From the NCBI GenBank assembly GCA_963662625.1, contig OY759726.1, forward strand, positions 1,152,001 to 1,216,000: DNA of 64,000 nt, in the 5' to 3' direction. Positions 6,889 to 46,601 of the stretch are shown here, piece by piece (position 1 is the stretch's first letter; each line of letters starts with the position of its first letter). This DNA is from Nitrosopumilus sp. Lineage in GTDB: Archaea > Thermoproteota > Nitrososphaeria > Nitrososphaerales > Nitrosopumilaceae. Both the position numbers and the translations under genes were made by a program. The notes under the pieces were generated by a model that did no database searches, was not told the DNA's origin, and saw nothing but the letters and a program-made list of their open reading frames with translations.

Positions 6889-7959
6889 ATGGACGGGCCT
6901 ACTTTTGACGTGATGAACGCGCGGGTGACCTTCAAGAACGTCCCGCTCCACTCGCTGTCCCGGTTCGCCTTCAAGGACGTCGGCGCGGCGGTCGAGGCGT
7001 TCAGGAAGATCCCCGACGTGGACGAGTGCATCATCATCCAGACCGCCAGCAGGGTCGAGATCTTCACGGTAAGCAACGTCCAGGGCGGGGAGACCCCGGA
7101 CGCGCGGAGGGACGCCGGGAAGGCGCTGGTGCTCAACAAGATCAAGGACACCTGGGAGTCCCTGGCCGACCTGGAGCAGATCGACATCGACCACTTTGAC
7201 CAGACCATGGAGGTGTACAAGGGATACGACGTGTACTTCCACCTGCTGCGCCTGGCCTGCGGCCTCGACTCCGTGGTCGTGGGAAAGCAGGAGATATTCG
7301 ACGAGATCGCCGCGTCGGCCTCCAACGCGAAGCAGGCGGGGCACTCGGGCAGGGTCCTCAACAAGCTGTTCGACCACGTGATACGCATAGCCGGCCGGGT
7401 GAGGAAGTCCACCGCGATCAGCAAGAACGTGCTCTCGCTCGGGGACATCGCAGTCAAGATAGTCTCCGAGAAGGCCGGCCTGGATCCCAAGAAGAAGGTC
7501 CTGCTGATCGGCACCGGCGAGCCGGCGGCGATGATCGCAAAGACCCTCAACCAGAACAAGGTCTCCTTCGAGGTCACCAGCAGGACCATCGAGCGCGCCA
7601 CGGGATTCTCGAAGATCCTGGGGGGCAAGCCTGTCGCGTTCGACGAGGTGCTGAGCGGGTTCGACAGGTTCGACATCGTGTTCGTGGCGACGACTGCAGA
7701 CTATTTCCTGCTCACGTACGACAGGATCCACCTGCCGATGGAGGAGAAGAAGAAGGGGACCCTGGTGCTCGACATGTCCGATCCCAGGACGGTCGACGAG
7801 GGGATCACGTCGCTGCCGGGCATCAAGCTGCTGTTCAGGGATCAGATCGCCGAGATCTACGAGGAGAACGTCCGGGAGAGATCCGGCATCGTCCCCGCCG
7901 TAGAGAAGATCATCGAGAAGGAGACCCCGCTCGTCGAGGCGGCCATGCACAGGGCATAG
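6889..7959 (+). CDS. Glutamyl-tRNA reductase-like protein lacking the catalytic Cys
   Basis: HemA fold motifs (IIQTASRVE, HLLRLACGLDSVVVG, LLIGTGE, DMSDPR); TCNR is replaced by TASR; no C-terminal dimerisation domain. Confidence 0.8.
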   Translation: MDGPTFDVMNARVTFKNVPLHSLSRFAFKDVGAAVEAFRKIPDVDECIIIQTASRVEIFTVSNVQGGETPDARRDAGKALVLNKIKDTWESLADLEQIDIDHFDQTMEVYKGYDVYFHLLRLACGLDSVVVGKQEIFDEIAASASNAKQAGHSGRVLNKLFDHVIRIAGRVRKSTAISKNVLSLGDIAVKIVSEKAGLDPKKKVLLIGTGEPAAMIAKTLNQNKVSFEVTSRTIERATGFSKILGGKPVAFDEVLSGFDRFDIVFVATTADYFLLTYDRIHLPMEEKKKGTLVLDMSDPRTVDEGITSLPGIKLLFRDQIAEIYEENVRERSGIVPAVEKIIEKETPLVEAAMHRA

Positions 7960-8029
7960 CCCCGCAGCTTCCGCGCCCCGATGATGCCGTCCGCCATCCT
8001 GTCCAGCCTCGCGATGGGCCGCGCCAGGG

Positions 8030-8194
8030 TCACCCCTGCTGCCTTGCGATGAACTGCATCAGGGCCTCCCTGGAGTAGTCTATCCCGTGCTCCTCCTCGG
8101 TATGCGCCTTGAAGTTGTCTATGACCTCCTCGACGCCGCCCTGGGCTACAAAGTCGCACTCAAAGCCGTAGTCGTTGCACCTAAGCCTGGCCAC
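8030..8194 (-). CDS. Small DUF1059-like metal-binding protein
   Basis: LRCNDYGFECDF...H...EEHG pattern; GTG start just downstream of the TATA tract at 8213-8224. Confidence 0.75.
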   Translation of the reverse strand: MARLRCNDYGFECDFVAQGGVEEVIDNFKAHTEEEHGIDYSREALMQFIARQQG

Positions 8195-8212
8195 GGTTAA
8201 GACTGCAAGCCG

Positions 8213-8224
8213 TTTATATATAAA
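8213..8224. promoter_or_regulatory. TATA tract between divergent genes
   Basis: Palindromic TTTATATATAAA in a high-GC background, ~20 nt upstream of the DUF1059-like start. Confidence 0.6.
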
Positions 8225-8302
8225 TCTCGGGCCGCCCCAGCCCATGCTGATCACGCGCCGGTTGCAGAAATACATTTATCCAAAACCGGGGAAGTATGGT
8301 CG

Positions 8303-9142
8303 ATGGTGGTAGAGTACAAGGCCAAGATCACATACATACAGCTGGTCAAGGAGGACCTGGCCGTGATCCGCATACGGCCCGACGGGGGGATGCCCGAGTA
8401 CAAGACGGGGCAGTTCCTCACCATAGGCCTGCCGATACCATCCGAAAAGAAGGTCGTCAGGCGCGCCTACTCCATAGCGTCCCACCCCGAGAACCGCGAC
8501 TATTTCGAGTTCCTGATCAGGTGGGTCAGGCGGCCCCTGCCGGGAAGGGTCACGACGGAGCTGTTCTACGCGAACGTCGGCGACGAGGTCTCCCTCGGGG
8601 ATCCCACGGGCAACGCGCTGCAGATAGACCACGAGCTGCCCGACGGCATGCCGGACACGCGGCGTATAATATGCGTGGGCGGCGGGACCGGGCTGGCGCC
8701 GTTCATCGCGTTCGCAAAGCACCTGCACGACACCAACGACAGGCGCCAGGTCGTGGTCCTGCACGGCGTGAGCTACGTCGACGAGCTGAGCTACAAGGAG
8801 CTGCTCACGAGGCTCGAGGACGAGAGCATAGAGCGCGGCCCGGAGGAGTGGGACTTCAAGTACAGGGCGTCGGTGAGCAGGCCCAAGGAGTTCTTCAACA
8901 GGTCGTGGTCCGGGCAGGCCGGGAGGGTCGAGTCCTTCTTCAAGCCCAACAAACAGGGCGTCTCGCCCATCGACGAGCTGGTGGGGGAGGAGGTGACTCC
9001 CCAGAACAGCAAGATCTACATCTGCGGCTACCAGGGGACGATAGACGGGGTGATCGACCACCTCTCTCCCAAGGGGTTCGTGACCAAGGACCAGAAGCAC
9101 GAGGACGGAAGCTACGAAATAAAGTTCGAGTCCTACGGGTGA
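8303..9142 (+). CDS. Ferredoxin-NADP+ reductase family FAD/NAD(P)-binding oxidoreductase
   Basis: RRAYSIAS FAD motif, GGGTGLAPF, YICGY and C-terminal FESY. Confidence 0.9.
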   Translation: MVVEYKAKITYIQLVKEDLAVIRIRPDGGMPEYKTGQFLTIGLPIPSEKKVVRRAYSIASHPENRDYFEFLIRWVRRPLPGRVTTELFYANVGDEVSLGDPTGNALQIDHELPDGMPDTRRIICVGGGTGLAPFIAFAKHLHDTNDRRQVVVLHGVSYVDELSYKELLTRLEDESIERGPEEWDFKYRASVSRPKEFFNRSWSGQAGRVESFFKPNKQGVSPIDELVGEEVTPQNSKIYICGYQGTIDGVIDHLSPKGFVTKDQKHEDGSYEIKFESYG

Positions 9143-16927: not shown

Positions 16928-17625
16928 TGAGCGGCCCGGATCCTGAAAAAGTCGAAGAAAAGCCCGAGACCCCGCCCGAAGCCAAGCCCGAAGCCAAGCC
17001 CGAAGCCAAGCCCGAAGCCAAGCCCGAAGCCAAGCCCGAAGCCAAGCCCGAAGCCAAGCCCGAAGCCAAGCCGGCACCCAAGCCCGCGCCCAAAAAACCT
17101 GCGGGCAAACCGGAGGCAAAAGAACCGGAACTTCCGGCGTTTGAAAAGGAACTTGCGGACAAGATCGTCGGAAAGTTCGGCGAAAAGACCAAGATCGCCT
17201 TCGTCAAGCCAGACAGGATCAGGATCGACGTGGGGAGGGAGGACGTCCACGACGTCGCCGAGTTCGTGAGGGACGAGATGAACTTCGACCATGCCGAGTC
17301 GGTCTCGGGGGTGGACTTTCCCGACGAGAAGGAGATCGAGGTGGTCTACCACCTGGGATCATACAGCGATCCGTCCCTGGCTAGGCAGGTGCTGACCCTG
17401 GCCACCAGGGCCCAGAGGGAGGACAACCCGCTGCCTGGCAGCGACGCCACCACGCTCCCGAGCCTCAGGGACGTGTTTTACAGCGTCGAGTTCCACGAAA
17501 GGGAGGTCTTTGAGATGCTGGGGGTCTACTTTGACGGCCACCCGGACAACAGGAGGCTGCTTCTGCCGGAGGACTGGGCGGATCTGCCGCCGCTGCGGAA
17601 GGACTTTGCGATCAAGGGAAGATAA
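16924..17625 (+). CDS. nuoC: Complex I subunit C with PEAK-repeat N-terminus
   Basis: EREVFEMLGVYFDGHPD and PPLRKDF. Confidence 0.93.
   Translation: MMSGPDPEKVEEKPETPPEAKPEAKPEAKPEAKPEAKPEAKPEAKPEAKPAPKPAPKKPAGKPEAKEPELPAFEKELADKIVGKFGEKTKIAFVKPDRIRIDVGREDVHDVAEFVRDEMNFDHAESVSGVDFPDEKEIEVVYHLGSYSDPSLARQVLTLATRAQREDNPLPGSDATTLPSLRDVFYSVEFHEREVFEMLGVYFDGHPDNRRLLLPEDWADLPPLRKDFAIKGR
16975..17070 (+). repeat. 12-bp tandem repeat CCCGAAGCCAAG x8 (PEAK)
   Basis: Eight perfect copies read directly. Confidence 0.95.
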
Positions 17626-17628
17626 ACA

Positions 17629-18762
17629 ATGACAGCAGAACTGCCCCCGGGACTCGCATTACAGAAAGTGGACGAGAGGATCATGACCCTCAACGTCGGG
17701 CCGCAGCACCCGGGGTCGGGGCACATGAGGATAATAGTGCAGATCGACGGCGACTACATCGTAGCCTGCGATCCAGATCCGGGCTACGTGCACCGCGGGG
17801 AGGAGAAGATGGCCGAGTACAGGAACTACGTCACGAACATCCCCCACCTGGAGAGGCCCGTGATCCACGACTCCTGCAACATCCTGTACCCGTACGTACT
17901 GGGGGCGGAGGATCTCCTCGGGGTAGAGGTCCCGGAGCGCGCAAAGTACATCCGCGTCATCGCCTCCGAGCTGAACAGGTGCATCTACACGATGTACTGG
18001 CTCGCGATCTACGGCATATTCCTGGGCCATTCCACCATGTTCATGTGGCCCGCCGGCGACAGGGAACTGCTGATCGACCTGATGGAGAAGATGTCGGGCG
18101 CGAGGGTCACTCACGCCTACTTCGTGCCGGGCGGCGTCCGGAACGACCTGCCCCCGAACTTTGAGGACGCCTGCCTGAGGCAGGTGGCCTATTTCGAGAA
18201 GAGGATCAAGGAGTACGCCGCGGTGTTCTACGACAACCCGATCCTGATATCCAGGACAGCCGACACCGGGGTCCTGTCACGGGACGACGCGATCCGCCTC
18301 GGCACCACCGGATCCGTCCTGCGCGCCAGCGGGGTGGACTATGACGTGAGGAAGAAGGAGCCGTATGACGTCTACGACGAGCTGGACTTCCAAACCAACG
18401 TGCTCAAGTCAGGCGACTCTTACGCCAGGTCCAAGATACCGTGGCTCGACATGCTCGAGAGCTGCCGGATCGTCAGGAACGCGCTGCAGAAGATGCCCAA
18501 GTCCGGCTCGGTCAGGGTGAAGCTCAAGCCCAACCCCCGCGGCGCGCTGGACTCCGTCTACAGGCGGGTGGAGTCGGGGCGCGGCGCGCTGGGGTGCTAC
18601 ATCGTGTCGGACAAGAAGCCGGAGCCCTACAGGGTGAAGCTCAGCGTGGGATCGTTCAGGAACCTGATCGCGCTCCCGTACCTGCTCAAGGGCGAAAAGC
18701 TCGGCAACATGCCGTCGGTATACTGGAGCCTGAACTACTGGCCGGTGGAGGCAGACAGGTAA
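17629..18762 (+). CDS. nuoD: Complex I subunit D
   Basis: LNVGPQHPGSGH, GYVHRGEEK and ESGRG. Confidence 0.95.
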   Translation: MTAELPPGLALQKVDERIMTLNVGPQHPGSGHMRIIVQIDGDYIVACDPDPGYVHRGEEKMAEYRNYVTNIPHLERPVIHDSCNILYPYVLGAEDLLGVEVPERAKYIRVIASELNRCIYTMYWLAIYGIFLGHSTMFMWPAGDRELLIDLMEKMSGARVTHAYFVPGGVRNDLPPNFEDACLRQVAYFEKRIKEYAAVFYDNPILISRTADTGVLSRDDAIRLGTTGSVLRASGVDYDVRKKEPYDVYDELDFQTNVLKSGDSYARSKIPWLDMLESCRIVRNALQKMPKSGSVRVKLKPNPRGALDSVYRRVESGRGALGCYIVSDKKPEPYRVKLSVGSFRNLIALPYLLKGEKLGNMPSVYWSLNYWPVEADR

Positions 18763-41107: not shown

Positions 41108-41605
41108 ATGCCAAAGGCAAGCGTGCTGCTGCTGTTGGTCGGCGGGATACTGGGGCTGGGGATAACGCTCTCGTTCTACGGCAACCAGGCCCTCTTCGAG
41201 GATCTGGCCGACGGGGGAGGCGACGTCAGGCCTGGGGAGAAGCTCGAGGTCAGGGCGGAACTGGAGCGGTCAGACGAGGGCGGGATCTACGCGATCCAGG
41301 TGGAAGATCCCGACGGGGGGCCGGTCTCAGTGCGGGTACTGGATCCCGGGGGCGCCGAGGTGGGCTCCGGCCTTGTCGGCGGCGAACTGTTCGAGGGGAG
41401 GTTCGCGGTGGACTCCGACGGCGCCTACACGCTGGTCGCAAGGAACGACGGGACGGGCCCAGTCAAGGTCTTCGCCGTGATGGGGCCGGAACCCGACGCG
41501 GGCACGAAGTCGTTGGGGTTCGTCTCGCTGTACGTGCTGGTCATAGGGCTGCTGGGCATGGCCGGCGTGGCGATCTTCGCGGTTAGGAACAGGAAGCGGC
41601 CCTAG
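41108..41605 (+). CDS. Membrane-anchored hypothetical protein
   Basis: N- and C-terminal TM helices flanking a beta-rich domain. Confidence 0.75.
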   Translation: MPKASVLLLLVGGILGLGITLSFYGNQALFEDLADGGGDVRPGEKLEVRAELERSDEGGIYAIQVEDPDGGPVSVRVLDPGGAEVGSGLVGGELFEGRFAVDSDGAYTLVARNDGTGPVKVFAVMGPEPDAGTKSLGFVSLYVLVIGLLGMAGVAIFAVRNRKRP

Positions 41606-41907
41606 TTCAGGTAGCTGTCCATCTTCTCCAGGCCGCCGATCGCGGAGTCGAAATCCTCGCCCTCGACTATCCCAGCCAGCATCTCGGTGTTTGCCGAAAA
41701 GTAGGCCTTCCCGCCGTCGAGCCTCTGGATCACGAACCCCGTCTCTACCAGGTACCCGAGCCTCTGCCGGACGTCGTCCTCGGTGGTGGAGGCGGCACTT
41801 GCCAAAAACGAGCATTCCTTCTCGCCGTCCTCCAGCTCCGCGATGACGGCCGAAGTCACTGGATCAAACATGCAGTCGACCACCTTGTCCCTGTCAAAGT
41901 CGGGCAT
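41602..41907 (-). CDS. Small winged-helix-like protein
   Basis: ArsR-like spacing (FDPVTSAVIAELEDGEK...VRQRLGYLVETGFV). Confidence 0.65.
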   Translation of the reverse strand: MPDFDRDKVVDCMFDPVTSAVIAELEDGEKECSFLASAASTTEDDVRQRLGYLVETGFVIQRLDGGKAYFSANTEMLAGIVEGEDFDSAIGGLEKMDSYLN

Positions 41908-42037
41908 CCTCTTGGAGGGGCGGGGAGGGAATTTAAGAATTTCCAGTCAGGGCGGGCACGGGCCCCGGATCGCGCAGTCGGCGCCGCCTGGGTCACGGGT
42001 GCTTGTGCACCAATAAGGTAATTAGTAAACCCCCCCC

Positions 42038-42199
42038 ATGCAACCCATGCAGAAACTGTGCGAGGGGGACGCCTCCGGGAGGGGGCAGCACTGCTTCTGC
42101 ATGGAGGTCGACCCCAGGAGCGGGGTGCGGAAGTGCTGCAGGTGCAACAGGTGGAACATCCAGGGGCGGGACTGGACAGACGACTCTGACTTCCGGTGA
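42038..42199 (+). CDS. 53-aa Cys-rich microprotein (not in the ORF track)
   Basis: MQPMQKLCEGDASGRGQHCFCMEVDPRSGVRKCCRCNRWNIQGRDWTDDSDFR*; GC3-rich codons; AT-rich tract ~20 nt upstream. Confidence 0.65.
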   Translation: MQPMQKLCEGDASGRGQHCFCMEVDPRSGVRKCCRCNRWNIQGRDWTDDSDFR

Positions 42200-42261
42200 T
42201 CCCGCGCAATACCGCGGTTCCTACCGCGATATCGCGAAAACACGCGCGATCGCGCGAGCCA

Positions 42262-42293
42262 TGCCTAATAGTCTGTTGCCTAATAGTCTGTTG
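42262..42293 (+). repeat. 15-bp tandem duplication TGCCTAATAGTCTGT x2 (+TG)
   Basis: Read directly at the IS5/IS110 left junction. Confidence 0.95.
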
Positions 42294-42324
42294 AACACAT
42301 GATAACCACCCAGGCGTAGTTGCC

Positions 42325-42446
42325 CCGATGGATCGACCCCTGGTAGCGCGTGGGCCTGGCGCCCTTTCTGTTGAATGGGGCAATCCGAGCTGCTGTGTCA
42401 CTGGGCTTCGCGCCCTGATAGGTGTGTGCAGCTTCCGATCCGTCAG
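42325..42446 (+). ncRNA. Candidate bridge RNA (boundaries approximate)
   Basis: Nested stems (42327-35/42436-44, 42346-50/42409-13), GCAA tetraloop, and unpaired TCTGTTG (target match) and ATAGGTG (donor match). Confidence 0.55.
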
Positions 42447-42473
42447 ACATCCGAAAGGAGGTGATAGGAAAGG

Positions 42474-43565
42474 ATGAGAAAGACAAGCATAGGGATAGAC
42501 ATAGGGAAGAGAAAGTGCGACGCGTGCGTGGTGGACGGGAACGGGAAGGTTCTCGAGAGGGGGCAGTACCCCAACACCCGGGACGGCGCGGCGAAGTTCG
42601 CAGGGGTGATGGCGCGCAGGTACCTGGGCGGCGGCCCCTGCAGGGCCGCCTGCGAGACGACTGGCAACATGTGGAACAAGACGTTTGACGCCTTCGAGGC
42701 GGCCGGGATCGACATCAAACTGGCCAACACGTACAAGATGGCCCTGATAGCCAGGACCGCCAAGAAGACCGACAGGATTGACGCAGAGAAGATAGCGCAG
42801 GTGCTGAGGATGGACATGATACCGGAGTGCTACGTCCCCCCGGGCCACACCAGGGGGATACGCGCGATGGTCAGGCAGAGGGTGAGGCTGGTCCAGGACA
42901 GGACGCGCGTGATAAACCGCGTCCACAGCCTCCTGGACCGCCACGACATCCAAATGGACGCCTCCACCATGCACTCCGAAAAGGCCTTGGGGCAGCTGGA
43001 ATCTGCGGAGCTGGGCTCTGGGCACGACGGGTTGGTCCTGGGCCAGTGCGCCCGGCAGGTGAGGCACCTGACGGAGGAGATCTCCGTGACGGAGGGGCTC
43101 CTCGAGATGGAGGCCGCCCACAACGGTGACGCGAGGCTGCTGGCCAGCATGACCGGCGTCGGCACGTTCACCGCGGTGCTGATGGCCTCCGAGATCGGGG
43201 ACGTCTCCAGGTTCAGGGGGCCAAGGCAGATGGTGTCGTGGGCCGGGCTGTGCCCGGTGGTCTACCAGTCGGGGAACCAGCTGTACACGGGGAGGATCAA
43301 GAAGATCGACTCCAGCAGCCTGGTCAACTGGGCCATGTGCGAGGCCGCGAACACCGCCGTGCGGCACGACGCCAGGATGGAAGCCGTGTATGCGTCCGCG
43401 CGCCGGAGGCACGCGGACAAGCATGGGCCGGCAATCATAGTGGTGGCCCACAAGATGGTCACCATAATGTGGCACATGCTGACCACCAAGACACCCTACG
43501 AGTCCCGCAACGAGAGGCTGTACCGGCGCAAGCTGGCCAGGATGGAGAAGGCGCGCCGGGGGTGA
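42474..43565 (+). CDS. IS110-family DEDD recombinase/transposase
   Basis: GIDIG, ACETTG and KKTDRIDA (DEDD); MTGVG HhH; GLCPVVYQSG with catalytic Ser; SD GGAGGTGA at 42457-42464. Confidence 0.95.
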   Translation: MRKTSIGIDIGKRKCDACVVDGNGKVLERGQYPNTRDGAAKFAGVMARRYLGGGPCRAACETTGNMWNKTFDAFEAAGIDIKLANTYKMALIARTAKKTDRIDAEKIAQVLRMDMIPECYVPPGHTRGIRAMVRQRVRLVQDRTRVINRVHSLLDRHDIQMDASTMHSEKALGQLESAELGSGHDGLVLGQCARQVRHLTEEISVTEGLLEMEAAHNGDARLLASMTGVGTFTAVLMASEIGDVSRFRGPRQMVSWAGLCPVVYQSGNQLYTGRIKKIDSSSLVNWAMCEAANTAVRHDARMEAVYASARRRHADKHGPAIIVVAHKMVTIMWHMLTTKTPYESRNERLYRRKLARMEKARRG

Positions 43566-43768
43566 CCCCCCGCGCTGCCCGCATCCCGGATCGTCTTGCC
43601 AGCGCTAGCTATAAATCTCATGCCATGCAACCCAGTCACGGATCGGAAAAACCGCGGGATGCATTGCGGCAACTACGCCTGAGTGGTTAACATAGGTGCA
43701 CAACTGCCAGAAATTGCCGGGTCTAAACAGTTGAACCCCCGGCCCAACCATGTCAAACCGAAAAGGCC

Positions 43769-44911
43769 TTGGATCACGGCCGCGCACCGTCCCCGTTGGC
43801 TGCGACCGACAACGAGAAATACGTCAGGCGCGGGAGGGGCCTGGCTGTGTCGTATGACCCCGGCTGGGAGGACGACCTGAGGGAGGCCAACGCCGGCAAG
43901 GAGGGCGCCCCGTTCAGGTACGCCGGGGCGCTGGTCATGGCCGCCGCCGCGGTGAGGACCTCGCTCGGGGTCCAGTACAGGCAGCTGTCCGGGCTCCTCG
44001 CGGGGATGCTGGGGGGGCACGGCGCGCCGCACTACTCGGTGCTGGCCAGGAGGATGGCGCGCCTCGACGTGGACATCGGCGGGGGAGTCGTCCGCGTCTC
44101 CGGCGGCGGCCAGCCCATGACCCTGCTGGCCGACGCCACGGGCCTGAAGCAGTGCAACCGGGGCGAGTGGATACGGAAGAAGTGGAAGGTGAAGCGCGGG
44201 TTCGTCAAGCTGCACCTGCTGGCCGACGCCGACACGAAGAAGATACTCGCGGCGGTGGTGACCGACGACAGGACGGGCGACTCCCCCATGCTGAAGGAGC
44301 TCCTGGGAACCGTGGCGGGGCCGCGTGGCGGGAAGCCGGACGGGAAGCCGGCGGGGAAGCAGGGCGGGAAGCAGGACAGGCGCATGGCGCTGATCCGCGG
44401 GAAGGCAGCCGCGGCGGGGGATCCCCTGCCGCGCGTGGGCTCGCCCCCGCCCAACCTCCTCGCGAGCGGCGTGGCGCCGCTCGCGCTGCAGTGCGGCCAG
44501 CCGCCCGGCTCCCACGGGGCGCGCCTGATCGCGGACGGGGCGTACGCGTCGCGGGACAACATGCGGAGGTGCCGCGACATGGGCGTGGGGCCTATCATCC
44601 CGGTCAAGGTGGCGTCCACCGCCAGGGGCAAGGGCGCCGGCGGCGCGTGGGGCGAGGCGGTGCGGGACCAGCTGGGGGGCGGCCCGGAGGCGCGCGTCGA
44701 CAGGATGGGCACGAGGGAGAGGGAGGAGAACGTCCGGTACTGGAAGGCCAGGAAGGGGTACGGCAGGAGGTGGCTGATCGAGATAATCATATCGGCGTTC
44801 AAGAGGATGTTCGGGGACCACGTGCACTCGCGCAGGTGGGAGAACATCGTGCAGGAGGTAAGGCTCAGGGTGGCCCAGTACAACCGGTGGGCGGGGGAGG
44901 CGGGGGCGTAG
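43769..44911 (+). CDS. IS5-family DDE transposase (5' end possibly frameshifted)
   Basis: NEKYVRRG, YRQLSG, LADATGLK, GEWIRKKW, FVKLHL, ADGAY, YGRRWLIE and FKRMFG; low-complexity insert ~44320-44520. Confidence 0.88.
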   Translation: MDHGRAPSPLAATDNEKYVRRGRGLAVSYDPGWEDDLREANAGKEGAPFRYAGALVMAAAAVRTSLGVQYRQLSGLLAGMLGGHGAPHYSVLARRMARLDVDIGGGVVRVSGGGQPMTLLADATGLKQCNRGEWIRKKWKVKRGFVKLHLLADADTKKILAAVVTDDRTGDSPMLKELLGTVAGPRGGKPDGKPAGKQGGKQDRRMALIRGKAAAAGDPLPRVGSPPPNLLASGVAPLALQCGQPPGSHGARLIADGAYASRDNMRRCRDMGVGPIIPVKVASTARGKGAGGAWGEAVRDQLGGGPEARVDRMGTREREENVRYWKARKGYGRRWLIEIIISAFKRMFGDHVHSRRWENIVQEVRLRVAQYNRWAGEAGA

Positions 44912-45019
44912 GGACTCCAAGCGGCACGGCCTGGCCACGGCCCGGGGATCGTGCCGAGTTGTGCAACAGACTAATGCCTAAGCATGGTTTTTATCGGGGT
45001 AACTGAGAATTTTGGTCAC

Positions 45020-45595
45020 TTGAGCGCTCAGGAATACAGGCACATAGTCAGGATAGTGGGAAACGACATCCCGGGGGCCAAAAAGGTCGTGGTCGGCCTG
45101 ACCCAGATCAAGGGGATCGGGCACAACTTTGCCACCGCGGTGCTGGACGTGCTGAAAATTGACGTCAATTCCAACGTCGGCTTTCTGACGGAGCCGCAGG
45201 TACATGCCATCGAAAAGCTGATCACCGATCCAAAGTCTGCCAACTTTCCCGCATGGTTCCTGAACCGGAGAAAGGACATCGATACGGGAAACGACATGCA
45301 CCTGCTCACGTCTGACATCCCGTTCACGCTGAGAAACGACATCGAGCGTGAGAGGGTCACCAACAGCTGGAGGGGGTACCGGCACCTGTACGGCCTCAAG
45401 GTCAGGGGGCAGAGGACCCGGACCACCGGAAGAAAGGGCGGCGCGGTAGGCGTCGCAAAGGGCGGCAAGGCCGCACCAGTAAAACCATCAAAGCCTGGCG
45501 CGCTGGCGTCGCCTACGGGGGAGGCCGTGGCCGAACAGGGGACTCCGGCTAAGGCAGAGGGCGAGAAGGCGGCCCCGGAGGAGACTACGTCGTAG
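45020..45595 (+). CDS. rps13: 30S ribosomal protein S13 with low-complexity C-terminal tail
   Basis: [13 protein letters not shown] and [18 protein letters not shown]; TTG start downstream of TTTTAT. Confidence 0.95.
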
Positions 45596-45605
45596 GTGGC
45601 CGTGG

Positions 45606-46601
45606 ATGGGAGATCCAAAATACCCGCGGCGCGTGTGGAAGAAACCGAAGAGGCCCCTGAACTATGAACTAAAGATGGACGAGCTGAAGACGCTCGGCAC
45701 GTTTGGGCTCAGGACAAAGAGGGAGCTGTGGAAGGCGCACACGGAGCTGTCCCGCGTAAGGCACCAGGCACGGTCGCTGCTTGCGCTGAGGCAGGAGATA
45801 AGGCAGGAGAAAGAGCCGATCCTGATGAGGTCGCTCGCAAGAATCGGGCTGGTCAGCGGAGACGCGACCCTGGACGACGTGTTGAACCTGCAGGTAAACG
45901 ACCTGCTTTCCCGCAGGTTGCAGACGATAGTGTCGAGGAAGCTGGGGTTTCAAACCCCGTACCAGGCAAGGCAGGCTGTCGTGCACGGCCACATAATGAT
46001 CGGGGACAGGAAGGTAACCATCCCGTCATACACCGTGACACTGGAAGAGGAAGACGCGATTCGTTTTTCCCCGGAATCCACGATTGCGGAGATGTTGGAA
46101 AAGCACAAAAAGTCAACTGAGGAACCTGCAGAGGCCGCGCCAGAGACGCCGGCAGAGGCCGCGCCAGAGACGCCGGCAGAGGCCGCGCCAGAGACGCCGG
46201 CAGAGGCCGCGCCAGAGACGCCGGCAGAGGCCGCGCCAGAGACGCCGGCAGAGGCCGCGCCAGAGACGCCGGCAGAGGCCGCGCCAGAGACGCCGGCAGA
46301 GGCCGCGCCAGAGACGCCGGCAGAGGCCGCGCCAGAGACGCCGGCAGAGGCCGCGCCAGAGACGCCGGCAGAGGCCGCGCCAGAGACGCCGGCAGAGGCC
46401 GCGCCAGAGACGCCGGCAGAGGCCGCGCCAGAGACGCCGGCAGAGGCCGCGCCAGAGACGCCGGCAGAGGCCGCGCCAGAGACGCCGGCAGAGGCCGCGC
46501 CAGAGACGCCGGCAGAGGCCGCGCCAGAGACGCCGGCAGAGGCCGCGCCAGAGACGCCGGCAGAGGAGAGTAAACAGGACGACAAGCCTTCACCGAACTA
46601 A
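45606..46601 (+). CDS. rps4: 30S ribosomal protein S4 with long PAEAAPET-repeat tail
   Basis: MGDPKYPRR, FGLRTKRELW, RRLQTIV and ARQAVVHGHI. Confidence 0.95.
   Translation: MGDPKYPRRVWKKPKRPLNYELKMDELKTLGTFGLRTKRELWKAHTELSRVRHQARSLLALRQEIRQEKEPILMRSLARIGLVSGDATLDDVLNLQVNDLLSRRLQTIVSRKLGFQTPYQARQAVVHGHIMIGDRKVTIPSYTVTLEEEDAIRFSPESTIAEMLEKHKKSTEEPAEAAPETPAEAAPETPAEAAPETPAEAAPETPAEAAPETPAEAAPETPAEAAPETPAEAAPETPAEAAPETPAEAAPETPAEAAPETPAEAAPETPAEAAPETPAEAAPETPAEAAPETPAEAAPETPAEAAPETPAEAAPETPAEESKQDDKPSPN
46128..46566 (+). repeat. 24-bp tandem repeat GCAGAGGCCGCGCCAGAGACGCCG x18
   Basis: 18 perfect copies plus a partial copy. Confidence 0.97.

Follow-up and report, generated by a model that had tools for sequence, protein, structure and literature searches.

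Several insertion sequences (ISs) use the ends of another mobile element as their landing site, and such an arrangement is found in the DNA described here, a 64,000-nucleotide stretch of a Nitrosopumilus sp. genome (the window, C1:1152001-1216000 in a single 1.86-Mb contig with 63% G+C), in which an IS1111-type element of the IS110 family lies inside the left terminal inverted repeat of an IS5-family element. IS1383, which is cited with the IS110 family, is said by the title of a 2001 paper of Muller, Lauf and Hermann to integrate into the inverted repeats of IS1384 in Pseudomonas putida H, and is thus, as here, an IS that targets the inverted repeats of another IS. IS1384 is presumably a member of the IS5 family; the pair comes from a bacterial host and was described before RNA guides were known. 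This bacterial precedent makes the finding less new than the original prediction for this DNA had thought. IS4321/IS5075, of the IS1111 family, resemble the window element, as far as the published passages go, in their subterminal repeats, in occupying one position and orientation in the terminal repeat of another mobile element and in having many landing sites, but their targets are the 38-bp repeats of Tn21-family (Tn3-family) transposons in bacteria, whereas here the target is an IS5-family IS or a miniature inverted-repeat transposable element (MITE) in an archaeon. With bacterial pairs already known, the present locus is a clear archaeal example with an unusual layout and not a new principle. 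The original prediction had known of no description in thaumarchaea, and that part of it stands, in that no archaeal or thaumarchaeal description was found in the literature, of which the 2024 element tables (supplements of PMC11208160 and PMC11187229) may hold relatives.

Two kinds of RNA-guided relative are described. The published passages on IS621, of the IS110 group, give it a DEDD + Ser recombinase, a two-loop RNA from the left end and four guides that each include a 2-nt core, all of which are shared with the window element; each loop of this bridge RNA holds two guides, of which the left one pairs with the bottom strand (top-strand identity, core included), as it does here, and the right one with the top strand. 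In the same passages IS621 has subterminal repeats of 2-3 bp, a CT core and repetitive extragenic palindromic (REP) targets, in contrast to the 26-nt repeats and TG core of the window element, whose left guides also lie on the other side of the loop. The seekRNA elements ISEc11, ISPa11 and ISKpn4 share with it, according to the passages of PMC11187229, subterminal repeats, a GL-P----SG motif, a top-strand complement 5' of the bottom-strand match, and extensions of 7 bp on the left and 3 bp on the right (here TGAACAC, with the core counted on the left, and AGG). In these elements the RNA lies downstream of the gene, which the published passages give as the usual place of the long non-coding region of the IS1111 family, whereas that of the window element is encoded upstream.

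Our account, to which we assign a probability of roughly 0.87, is that an IS5-family element would first have inserted just upstream of the gene for ribosomal protein S13, producing the 8-bp duplication ATGCCTAA, and that the IS1111-type element would then have integrated site-specifically at the TG in the middle of the left 17-bp repeat of this IS5 (TAGTCTGT-TG-CACAACT). An RNA from the 180-nt left end would pick the site, its loop 1 reading the target and its loop 2 the joined ends of the element (the right end through AUAGGUG, which has its sequence, and the left end through the complementary UGUGU), and the DEDD/Ser recombinase would exchange strands at the shared TG. Ammonia-oxidizing archaea would then provide a clean, multi-copy and multi-genus natural case of an RNA-guided IS whose guides are directed at another transposon family's ends and at the MITEs of that family, and the layout, which mixes IS1111 hallmarks with a left-end RNA, is useful for mapping bridge/seek RNA architectures and for finding compact archaeal recombinases.

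Nesting of the elements and repeated use of the site

The nesting of the IS110-family element in the left repeat of the IS5 element is confirmed (Table 1). Cutting out 42294-43698, that is the element and one TG, rebuilds TAGTCTGTTGCACAACT, which is exactly complementary to the IS5's right end, and the TG that is single in intact repeats stands on both sides of the inserted element, so that the core is shared and there is no duplication of the transposase type. The element begins with AACACATG and finishes with CATAGGTG, and its two 26-nt subterminal arms differ by 2 mismatches. All coordinates of the original prediction, which had placed an IS110 recombinase element inside the terminal inverted repeat of an IS5, were right on direct reading, although a 15-bp tandem duplication at the left side had been overlooked. 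The order there is TAGTCTGTTG, CCTAA, a second TAGTCTGTTG and then the element, each 15-bp unit being composed of 5 bp of the flank or duplication and the outer 10 bp of the IS5 repeat. The tandem duplication is confined to the window copy and does not recur at the other copies of the element in the genome. Each unit finishes with the core TG, and a further TG precedes the first; because both end points follow TG, it is possible that the duplication arose by slippage or in an aberrant recombinase event.

Table 1. Features of the nested locus, in window positions.
Feature	Position	Strand	Basis
IS5 target-site duplication, left copy, ATGCCTAA, 8 bp	42261..42268	.	direct reading
Tandem duplication, 2 x 15 bp, CCTAATAGTCTGTTG	42264..42293 (units 42264-42278, 42279-42293)	.	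direct reading
Left target, outer 10 bp of IS5 left repeat, TAGTCTGTTG; last two bases TG = crossover core	42284..42293	+	direct reading and other copies
IS1111-type IS110-family element, 1,405 bp including one TG at right end	42294..43698	+	8 full-length genome copies, 84.5-100% identity
Left subterminal inverted repeat, 26 nt, 5 nt inside end, partner 43668-43693	42299..42324	+	
Two-loop guide (bridge/seek) RNA, extent as matched by covariance model R1	42327..42463	+	covariance model
Right target guide GGUAGCGCG, loop 1, 5' side	42342..42350	+	family-wide permutation test
Left target guide UUUCUGUUG, loop 1, 3' side	42365..42373	+	
Probable right donor guide CUGUGUCACU, loop 2, 5' side	42393..42402	+	by eye
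Left donor guide UGAUAGGUG, loop 2, 3' side	42416..42424	+	
DEDD/Ser recombinase, 363 aa	42474..43565	+	Pfam, NCBIfam, alignment
TATA-box-like motif GCTATAAA, 83 nt before right end, outward-pointing, putative promoter	43608..43615	+	
Right subterminal inverted repeat, followed by AGG and TG core	43668..43693	+	
TG core, right copy	43697..43698	.	direct reading
Rest of IS5-family element: inner 7 bp of left repeat, CACAACT (43699-43705), transposase gene, right repeat	43699..44973	+	
IS5-family DDE transposase open reading frame (ORF), 380 aa from TTG start as listed	43769..44911	+	Pfam, NCBIfam
IS5 right 17-bp terminal inverted repeat AGTTGTGCAACAGACTA, intact	44957..44973	-	direct reading
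IS5 target-site duplication, right copy, ATGCCTAA	44974..44981	.	direct reading

The host element is assigned to the IS5 family by its transposase, which matches DDE_Tnp_1 (PF01609, E 1.1e-21) and DDE_Tnp_1_5 in Pfam and NF033579 in NCBIfam (173.5 bits, cut-off 140), and by 17-bp terminal repeats and 8-bp duplications, found in the window copy and in five uninterrupted copies among the nine near-full copies detected by blastn in the genome. Each uninterrupted copy has TAGTCTGTTG joined directly to CACAACT on the left, the complementary right end and an 8-bp duplication of its own. Because these copies show both features, the 17-bp repeat and the 8-bp duplication are properties of the IS5, which in the window is interrupted after base 10 of its left repeat. 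The IS5 subgroup that makes 8-bp duplications is presumably ISH1. The IS5 copies (e.g., C1:44852-46138 and 7176-8474, compared with 43699-44973 of the window) align over 1,275, 1,287 or 1,299 bp, in steps of 12 bp that, at a guess, are located in the repetitive Gly/Lys/Pro-rich middle of the transposase.

Further copies of the inserted element were collected by blastn of the genome, giving eight full-length copies (A, in the window, and B-H) and fragments. The 18 left-end rows comprise nine of this subfamily (the eight full-length copies and one truncated to nt 1-325), seven more diverged fragments with other flanks and two cross-matches of the right-end repeat. All nine subfamily left junctions lie behind TAGTYTGTTG or TAATCTGTTG, namely TAGTCTGTTG (six), TAGTTTGTTG (two) and TAATCTGTTG (one), so that the flanks of every copy, once tabulated, place the subfamily at an IS5-type left half and not at unrelated sequence. 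The right flank is CACAACT, that of the IS5, in three cases, two in left repeats and one in the right repeat of the IS5 at 729877-731131, and both IS5 ends are therefore used. Two full-length copies and one partial copy have the right flanks CGCGACC, CGCAACC and CGTAACC of MITE repeats, the MITEs being targets of ~80 bp with IS5-like repeats, of which TAGTTTGTTG is their own. Overall, four copies are in IS5 repeats and three in ~80-bp MITEs; a truncated copy at 1774206 lies within an IS5 whose duplication CCACGCAA is intact.

The original prediction had further proposed that the element is programmed against IS5 ends and thereby has many landing sites. The constant position and orientation of the subfamily copies at IS5-type repeats, or at their left half, support the former, as do the RNA segments treated below; IS5 repeats are targets as predicted, and what has to be amended is that MITEs are targets too. 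An immobilizing effect on the host IS, also part of that prediction, would be a possible consequence. As to the number of sites, the genome has 22 occurrences of TAGTCTGTTG, where base composition predicts 1.4, and a census gave 15 intact TAGTYTGTTGCRCRAC sites and eight occupied ones (TAGTYTGTTGAACAC junctions), with TCTGTTG alone occurring 65 times. For annotation, this accounts for the 1.4-kb insert by which IS5 ends and MITEs are frequently split in these genomes.

A two-loop guide RNA in the left end

Between the left subterminal repeat and the recombinase gene, the element encodes an RNA whose structure is an outer stem around two internal loops, each closed by a covarying hairpin, with four guide segments in the loops. 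A covariance model built from 11 sequences (R1) finds this RNA in 26 of 151 sampled genomes of the host family and in 11 of 27 genera, a tally that includes G000 and the unpublished G076. Among 45 matches (41 distinct), compensatory changes occur in 26 of 32 base pairs, which none of 500 shuffles reached, and in the same alignment 94.3% of cells are paired versus at most 53% when the partner is slid. A search of 41500-45500 against Rfam gave no match at E up to 1, so that the locus defines an RNA family absent from that database. Single-sequence folding is uninformative in G+C-rich sequence such as this (z-scores of -0.52 for the left end and +0.40 for the right end). Small hairpins, into which RNAalifold folds the guide segments, were discarded in favor of the structure with two internal loops, the one backed by the wider alignment.

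Loop 1 matches the target. The last seven nucleotides of the left target guide UUUCUGUUG (TCTGTTG) are identical to repeat positions 4-10, core included, and match the IS5 repeat at 7 of 7 positions and the MITE repeats at 6 of 7. The complement of the right target guide GGUAGCGCG pairs with the core and the right half of the repeat; against the MITE repeats this guide forms seven Watson-Crick pairs and one G-U pair of nine. Loop 2 matches the ends of the element itself, the last seven nucleotides of the left donor guide UGAUAGGUG (AUAGGUG) being identical to the right end ATAGGTG, and UGUGU of the probable right donor guide CUGUGUCACU being complementary to ACACA at nt 2-6 of the element (in five relatives, UGUGUUC versus GAACACA). 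TGTGCA at 42425-42430, right after the left donor guide, was considered as the right target guide since it is the complement of TG+CACA, and was rejected: it is kept in relatives with the right flank CCTA and belongs to the closing stem AGCUGC/GCAGCU.

The guides change together with the sequences they match. Across distinct guides, with one unpublished locus excluded from these statistics, 23 of 31 left target guides match their own upstream flank at 6 or more of 7 positions, versus 32 of 930 non-cognate pairs (3.4%), and the observed mean was reached in none of 10,000 permutations. For the right target guide, compared with the 7 nt past the core, the mean is 4.32 versus 2.23 (14 distinct guides; again 0 of 10,000 permutations). 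The left donor guide covaries with the right end in relatives (AUAGAUG/ATAGATG, AUAGGAG/ATAGGAG and AUGGAUG/ATGGATG) and is identical to it at 7 of 7 positions in 7 of 11 distinct guide/end pairs, the four exceptions (5-6 of 7) being degraded copies of the present genome.

Relatives with 49-67% protein identity in other metagenome-assembled genomes (MAGs) have the common scaffold with different letters at the guide places, and these follow their own flanks. In a genome of a second genus (G079), 20 loci were examined, of which 11 follow TAG[C/T/A][C/T]TGTTG, and eight of these 11 have CATAAC on the right and carry the guides CCUGUUG and CGUUAUGCA, the latter pairing with 8 of 8 Watson-Crick pairs. 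For three of the eight the surrounding element is a ~80-bp MITE with an identified partner repeat and for four it is longer, while one is in apparently the same ~80-bp MITE reversed, as judged by eye. A second subfamily in G079 has the guides UCGUAGUUG and UUCAUUUUCA and lies behind (T/C/G)(C/T)AGTAGTTG. Because the guides in G079 match IS5-type repeats, and do so perfectly, the targeting of IS5-type ends is, to judge from these sequences, a heritable and reprogrammable trait of the clade. The reverse nesting also occurs: at L008:3630-5025 (Nitrosopumilus sp. MAG, OZ242041.1), an IS5-type element with the repeat TAGTTAGTTGCGCAAC, an 8-bp duplication CCCCCAGC and a 377-aa DDE-type ORF lies within the right end of an IS110-family relative, just before the TATA-like motif.

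Family membership and competing explanations

The recombinase matches DEDD_Tnp_IS110 and Transposase_20 in Pfam (E 6e-28 and 6.5e-22) and the NCBIfam model NF033542, 'IS110 family RNA-guided transposase', with 242.9 bits (cut-off 140). It aligns with two solved relatives, the ISCro4 and IS621 transposases, the similarity to IS621 being distant (phmmer E 5e-11). From the alignment to the ISCro4 structure and the motif positions, D9, E61, D100, D103 and S266-G267 stand at the DEDD and SG positions, which agrees with the original prediction that DEDD and the catalytic Ser are kept; the passages of PMC11208158 report for IS621 that mutation of D11, E60, D102, D105 or S241 abolishes activity. These matches and residues, the core shared without a transposase-type duplication and the RNA loops that match both target and donor place the element in the IS110 family.

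Several features are those of the IS1111 group. The subterminal inverted repeats of 26 nt, for which a script detected exact seeds of 8-12 nt in the relatives, compare with the usual 11-13 bp in the passages of PMC11187229, and the extensions beyond them, TG+AACAC (7) on the left, provided that the core is counted there, and AGG (3) on the right, compare with the 7 (or 6) and 3 bp given in that source. The GL-P----S(t)G motif that it lists appears as AGLCPVVYQSG, and the right target guide lies 5' of the left target guide, i.e., the top-strand complement is 5' of the bottom-strand match. What differs is the place of the longer non-coding stretch and its guide RNA, which in IS1111 elements lie downstream of the gene; here the RNA is in the 180-nt left end and the right end has 133 nt. 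Exceptions with an upstream region that the passages of PMC11187229 mention are ISMtsp17 and ISHvo10, the latter with long regions on both sides. Because IS1111 hallmarks are combined with a guide RNA that lies upstream in the manner of the IS110 type, we call the element IS1111-type with a left-end RNA and not a typical member.

A motif CTAGC(N)0-3TAGCTATAAA precedes the right end by 80-83 nt in 12 of the 20 distinct sequences of that end and is mutated in copies D-H. In a circular intermediate, this outward TATA-like motif, a putative promoter, would start transcripts that cross the junction and take in both the RNA and the gene of the recombinase, which would follow the logic of the family, where passages of PMC11208158 describe a promoter rebuilt at the circle junction. 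The predicted circle junction is consistent with the donor guide AUAGGUG. The circle, this expression and the strand-exchange chemistry are thus postulated by analogy with the family. In the integrated window copy the motif faces the IS5 gene.

That motif gives rise to a different explanation of why the pair persists, namely that it is kept for a benefit to the host or to the IS5, for example because the outward promoter at 43608-43615 drives the IS5 transposase gene 150 nt downstream and so activates rather than silences it. The orientation in copies A and B, where the element lies upstream of the IS5 gene and in the same direction, and the conservation of the motif would fit, but copy C is in a right repeat and points against the IS5 gene, the MITE targets have no gene to drive, and the position of the motif is more simply explained by expression over the circle junction, as described for the family; we regard such a benefit as unlikely. 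Somewhat less likely still is that the recombinase protein, and not an RNA, recognizes the IS5 repeat, with the left-end matches being leftovers of past insertions or chance. The matches are indeed short (6-9 nt), but both target guides covary with the flanks beyond anything reached by permutation, they lie in the loops of a structure with compensatory changes, and RNA guidance has been shown experimentally for both branches of the family, as the published passages state.

Two further explanations question the nesting itself, and we give almost no credence to either. If the junctions were an assembly chimera, the IS110 element would not truly be inside the IS5 repeat at this locus. Both elements are multi-copy, and the whole 3.2-kb stretch is spanned by no single listed contig of the sequencing runs X1-X4 (one study, all kept as contigs and none listed as an RNA run). 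However, independent loci whose outer flanks differ show the junction pair again, and the genome is one 1.86-Mb contig. Short-read contigs of X1 and X2 match 41900-42311 without difference, taking in unique left flank, the duplication and 18 nt of the beginning of the element (18 being less than the bridging threshold of 31 nt), an X3 contig covers 42135-42302, and other contigs connect the right end of the IS5 with its unique right flank. Equally hard to credit is that TAGTCTGTTG is the left end of the IS110 element itself, its identity with the IS5 being incidental and no IS5-specific target existing. It could account for copies F, G and H, which carry TAGTCTGTTG or TAATCTGTTG on the left despite a right flank unlike IS5. 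Against it, the 10 bp are contiguous with CACAACT in the uninterrupted IS5 copies, where the 8-bp duplications begin just outside, the MITE copies own TAGTTTGTTG as their repeat, and relatives have another sequence at this position, one that goes with the guide. The contigs show two other departures from the assembly: a branch at 43697 (GTAGTCTGT) corresponds to the uninterrupted IS5 repeat of other copies, and at 42262 a contig (runs X1, X3 and X4) leaves into unrelated sequence, AGCGGCGTCC..., which is neither IS5 nor the expected empty site.

RNA-guided insertion into the IS5 repeat remains our preferred explanation, and a number of observations weigh against it. The match of the right target guide of the window copy to the IS5 repeat is moderate, with five Watson-Crick and two G-U pairs of nine, and the MITE repeats fit it better; the right donor guide, the weakest of the four, has visual inspection behind it and no statistic. 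Fitting the RNA alignment to the model, as was done, favors the structure, and the sequences of related genomes are not independent. No circle junction, empty site or joints were seen in the contigs of the four runs, which as contigs drop rare forms. Copies F, G and H combine an IS5-type left half with a right flank that is not IS5-like, the flanks that are of neither IS5 nor MITE type being CGCCACT, CGGTGTC and TGATGTT; half-match insertion, reported in a published abstract, or later deletions are candidate causes of these half-sites. Half-match insertion and direct transfer, the latter likewise published, were considered as possible origins both of these copies and of the 15-bp duplication. 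Copy G (C1:1699637-1701039) has the left guide CGCCAUG and yet lies behind TAGTCTGTTG, its right end being ...ATAGGAG. A fragment at 1230215 (C1:1229946-1230215) carries the guide UCUGUUG and the flank CCATCTTG. Guide and flank have been uncoupled in both, perhaps by recombination between copies or by mobilization in trans.

Directional changes among the copies and the neighboring genes

The window copy is the only copy in the genome to retain the IGIDIG motif and, judged by sequence, looks like the only one still autonomous, the seven other full-length copies being degraded. Copies B, C, D, F and H no longer have the first catalytic Asp, IGIDIG having become GTGMG or a similar sequence, with conserved residues degraded, and in copies D-H the TATA-like motif is lost and the donor guides no longer match. 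Compared with copy A, the copies B-H (C1:719425-720829, 728474-729878, 476458-477862, 1063451-1064856, 17306-18717, 1699637-1701039 and 1507275-1508668) differ almost only in one direction: B and C each have 44 differences (22 A>G, 22 T>C and no other), D has 90 (45 A>G, 44 T>C and one transversion), E has 125 (47, 49 and 29 others), G has 202 (76, 67 and 59), F has 210 (108, 91 and 11) and H has 212 (102, 84 and 26). The G+C content, 63.3% in A, reaches 77.5% in F. The changes are nested, the 44 sites of B recurring in D (43), F (44) and H (43) and the 89 of D in F (88); they are clustered, with few at the ends of the element. Where columns are conserved among 12 outgroup proteins, copy A has the outgroup residue in 18 of 22, 39 of 44, 86 of 96 and 77 of 87 cases, whereas the derived copy never has it. 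Private changes number only 0-2 in B, C and D and have an ordinary mixed spectrum in E, G and H. The A>G/T>C pattern is weaker in the IS5 copies, amounts to a moderate excess only in two other repeat families, and is absent among the eight copies in G079.

A burst-like editing of mobile DNA from A:T to G:C, unlike the ordinary mutation spectrum of the genome, is a tentative explanation, and one we consider rather doubtful. One reading is a host activity that deaminates adenine, or does something equivalent, on transposition intermediates or repeated DNA. If true, it would be an archaeal counterpart of fungal repeat-induced point mutation (RIP) or of the APOBEC editing of retroelements, and the dead copies would have been moved on in trans by one intact copy; in the literature, searched at the level of titles, nothing pertinent to a RIP-like process in archaea was found. 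Two leads were dropped: the PF00383 deaminase has one match in the genome, as in most relatives, and the negative result for endonuclease V (PF04493) is not specific, having been obtained both for this genome, which is 99.5% complete, and for 10 of the 12 relatives of the family that were searched. The protein was found in six of eight genomes of other families of the order. Third codon positions have 82% G+C (crude ORF set); a genome-wide AT-to-GC pressure alone was judged insufficient because the private changes of E, G and H are mixed, and simple gene-conversion mosaics fail to explain the presence of 43 of the 44 sites of B within D. The ladder could bear on how mobile DNA is handled in an unusually G+C-rich lineage, with directional decay and a single intact master copy.

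Downstream of the nested pair, the composite stops 2 bp before the ATG of the listed ribosomal protein S13 ORF (44984-45595), and a T-rich, TATA-like stretch, GTTTTTATC, still separates the end of the IS5 from the conserved portion of the S13 gene (window 44974-45030). The ORF of ribosomal protein S4 that follows (45606-46601) ends in about two dozen PAEAAPET repeats at the C-terminus, which give rise to long spurious ORFs in the other frames.

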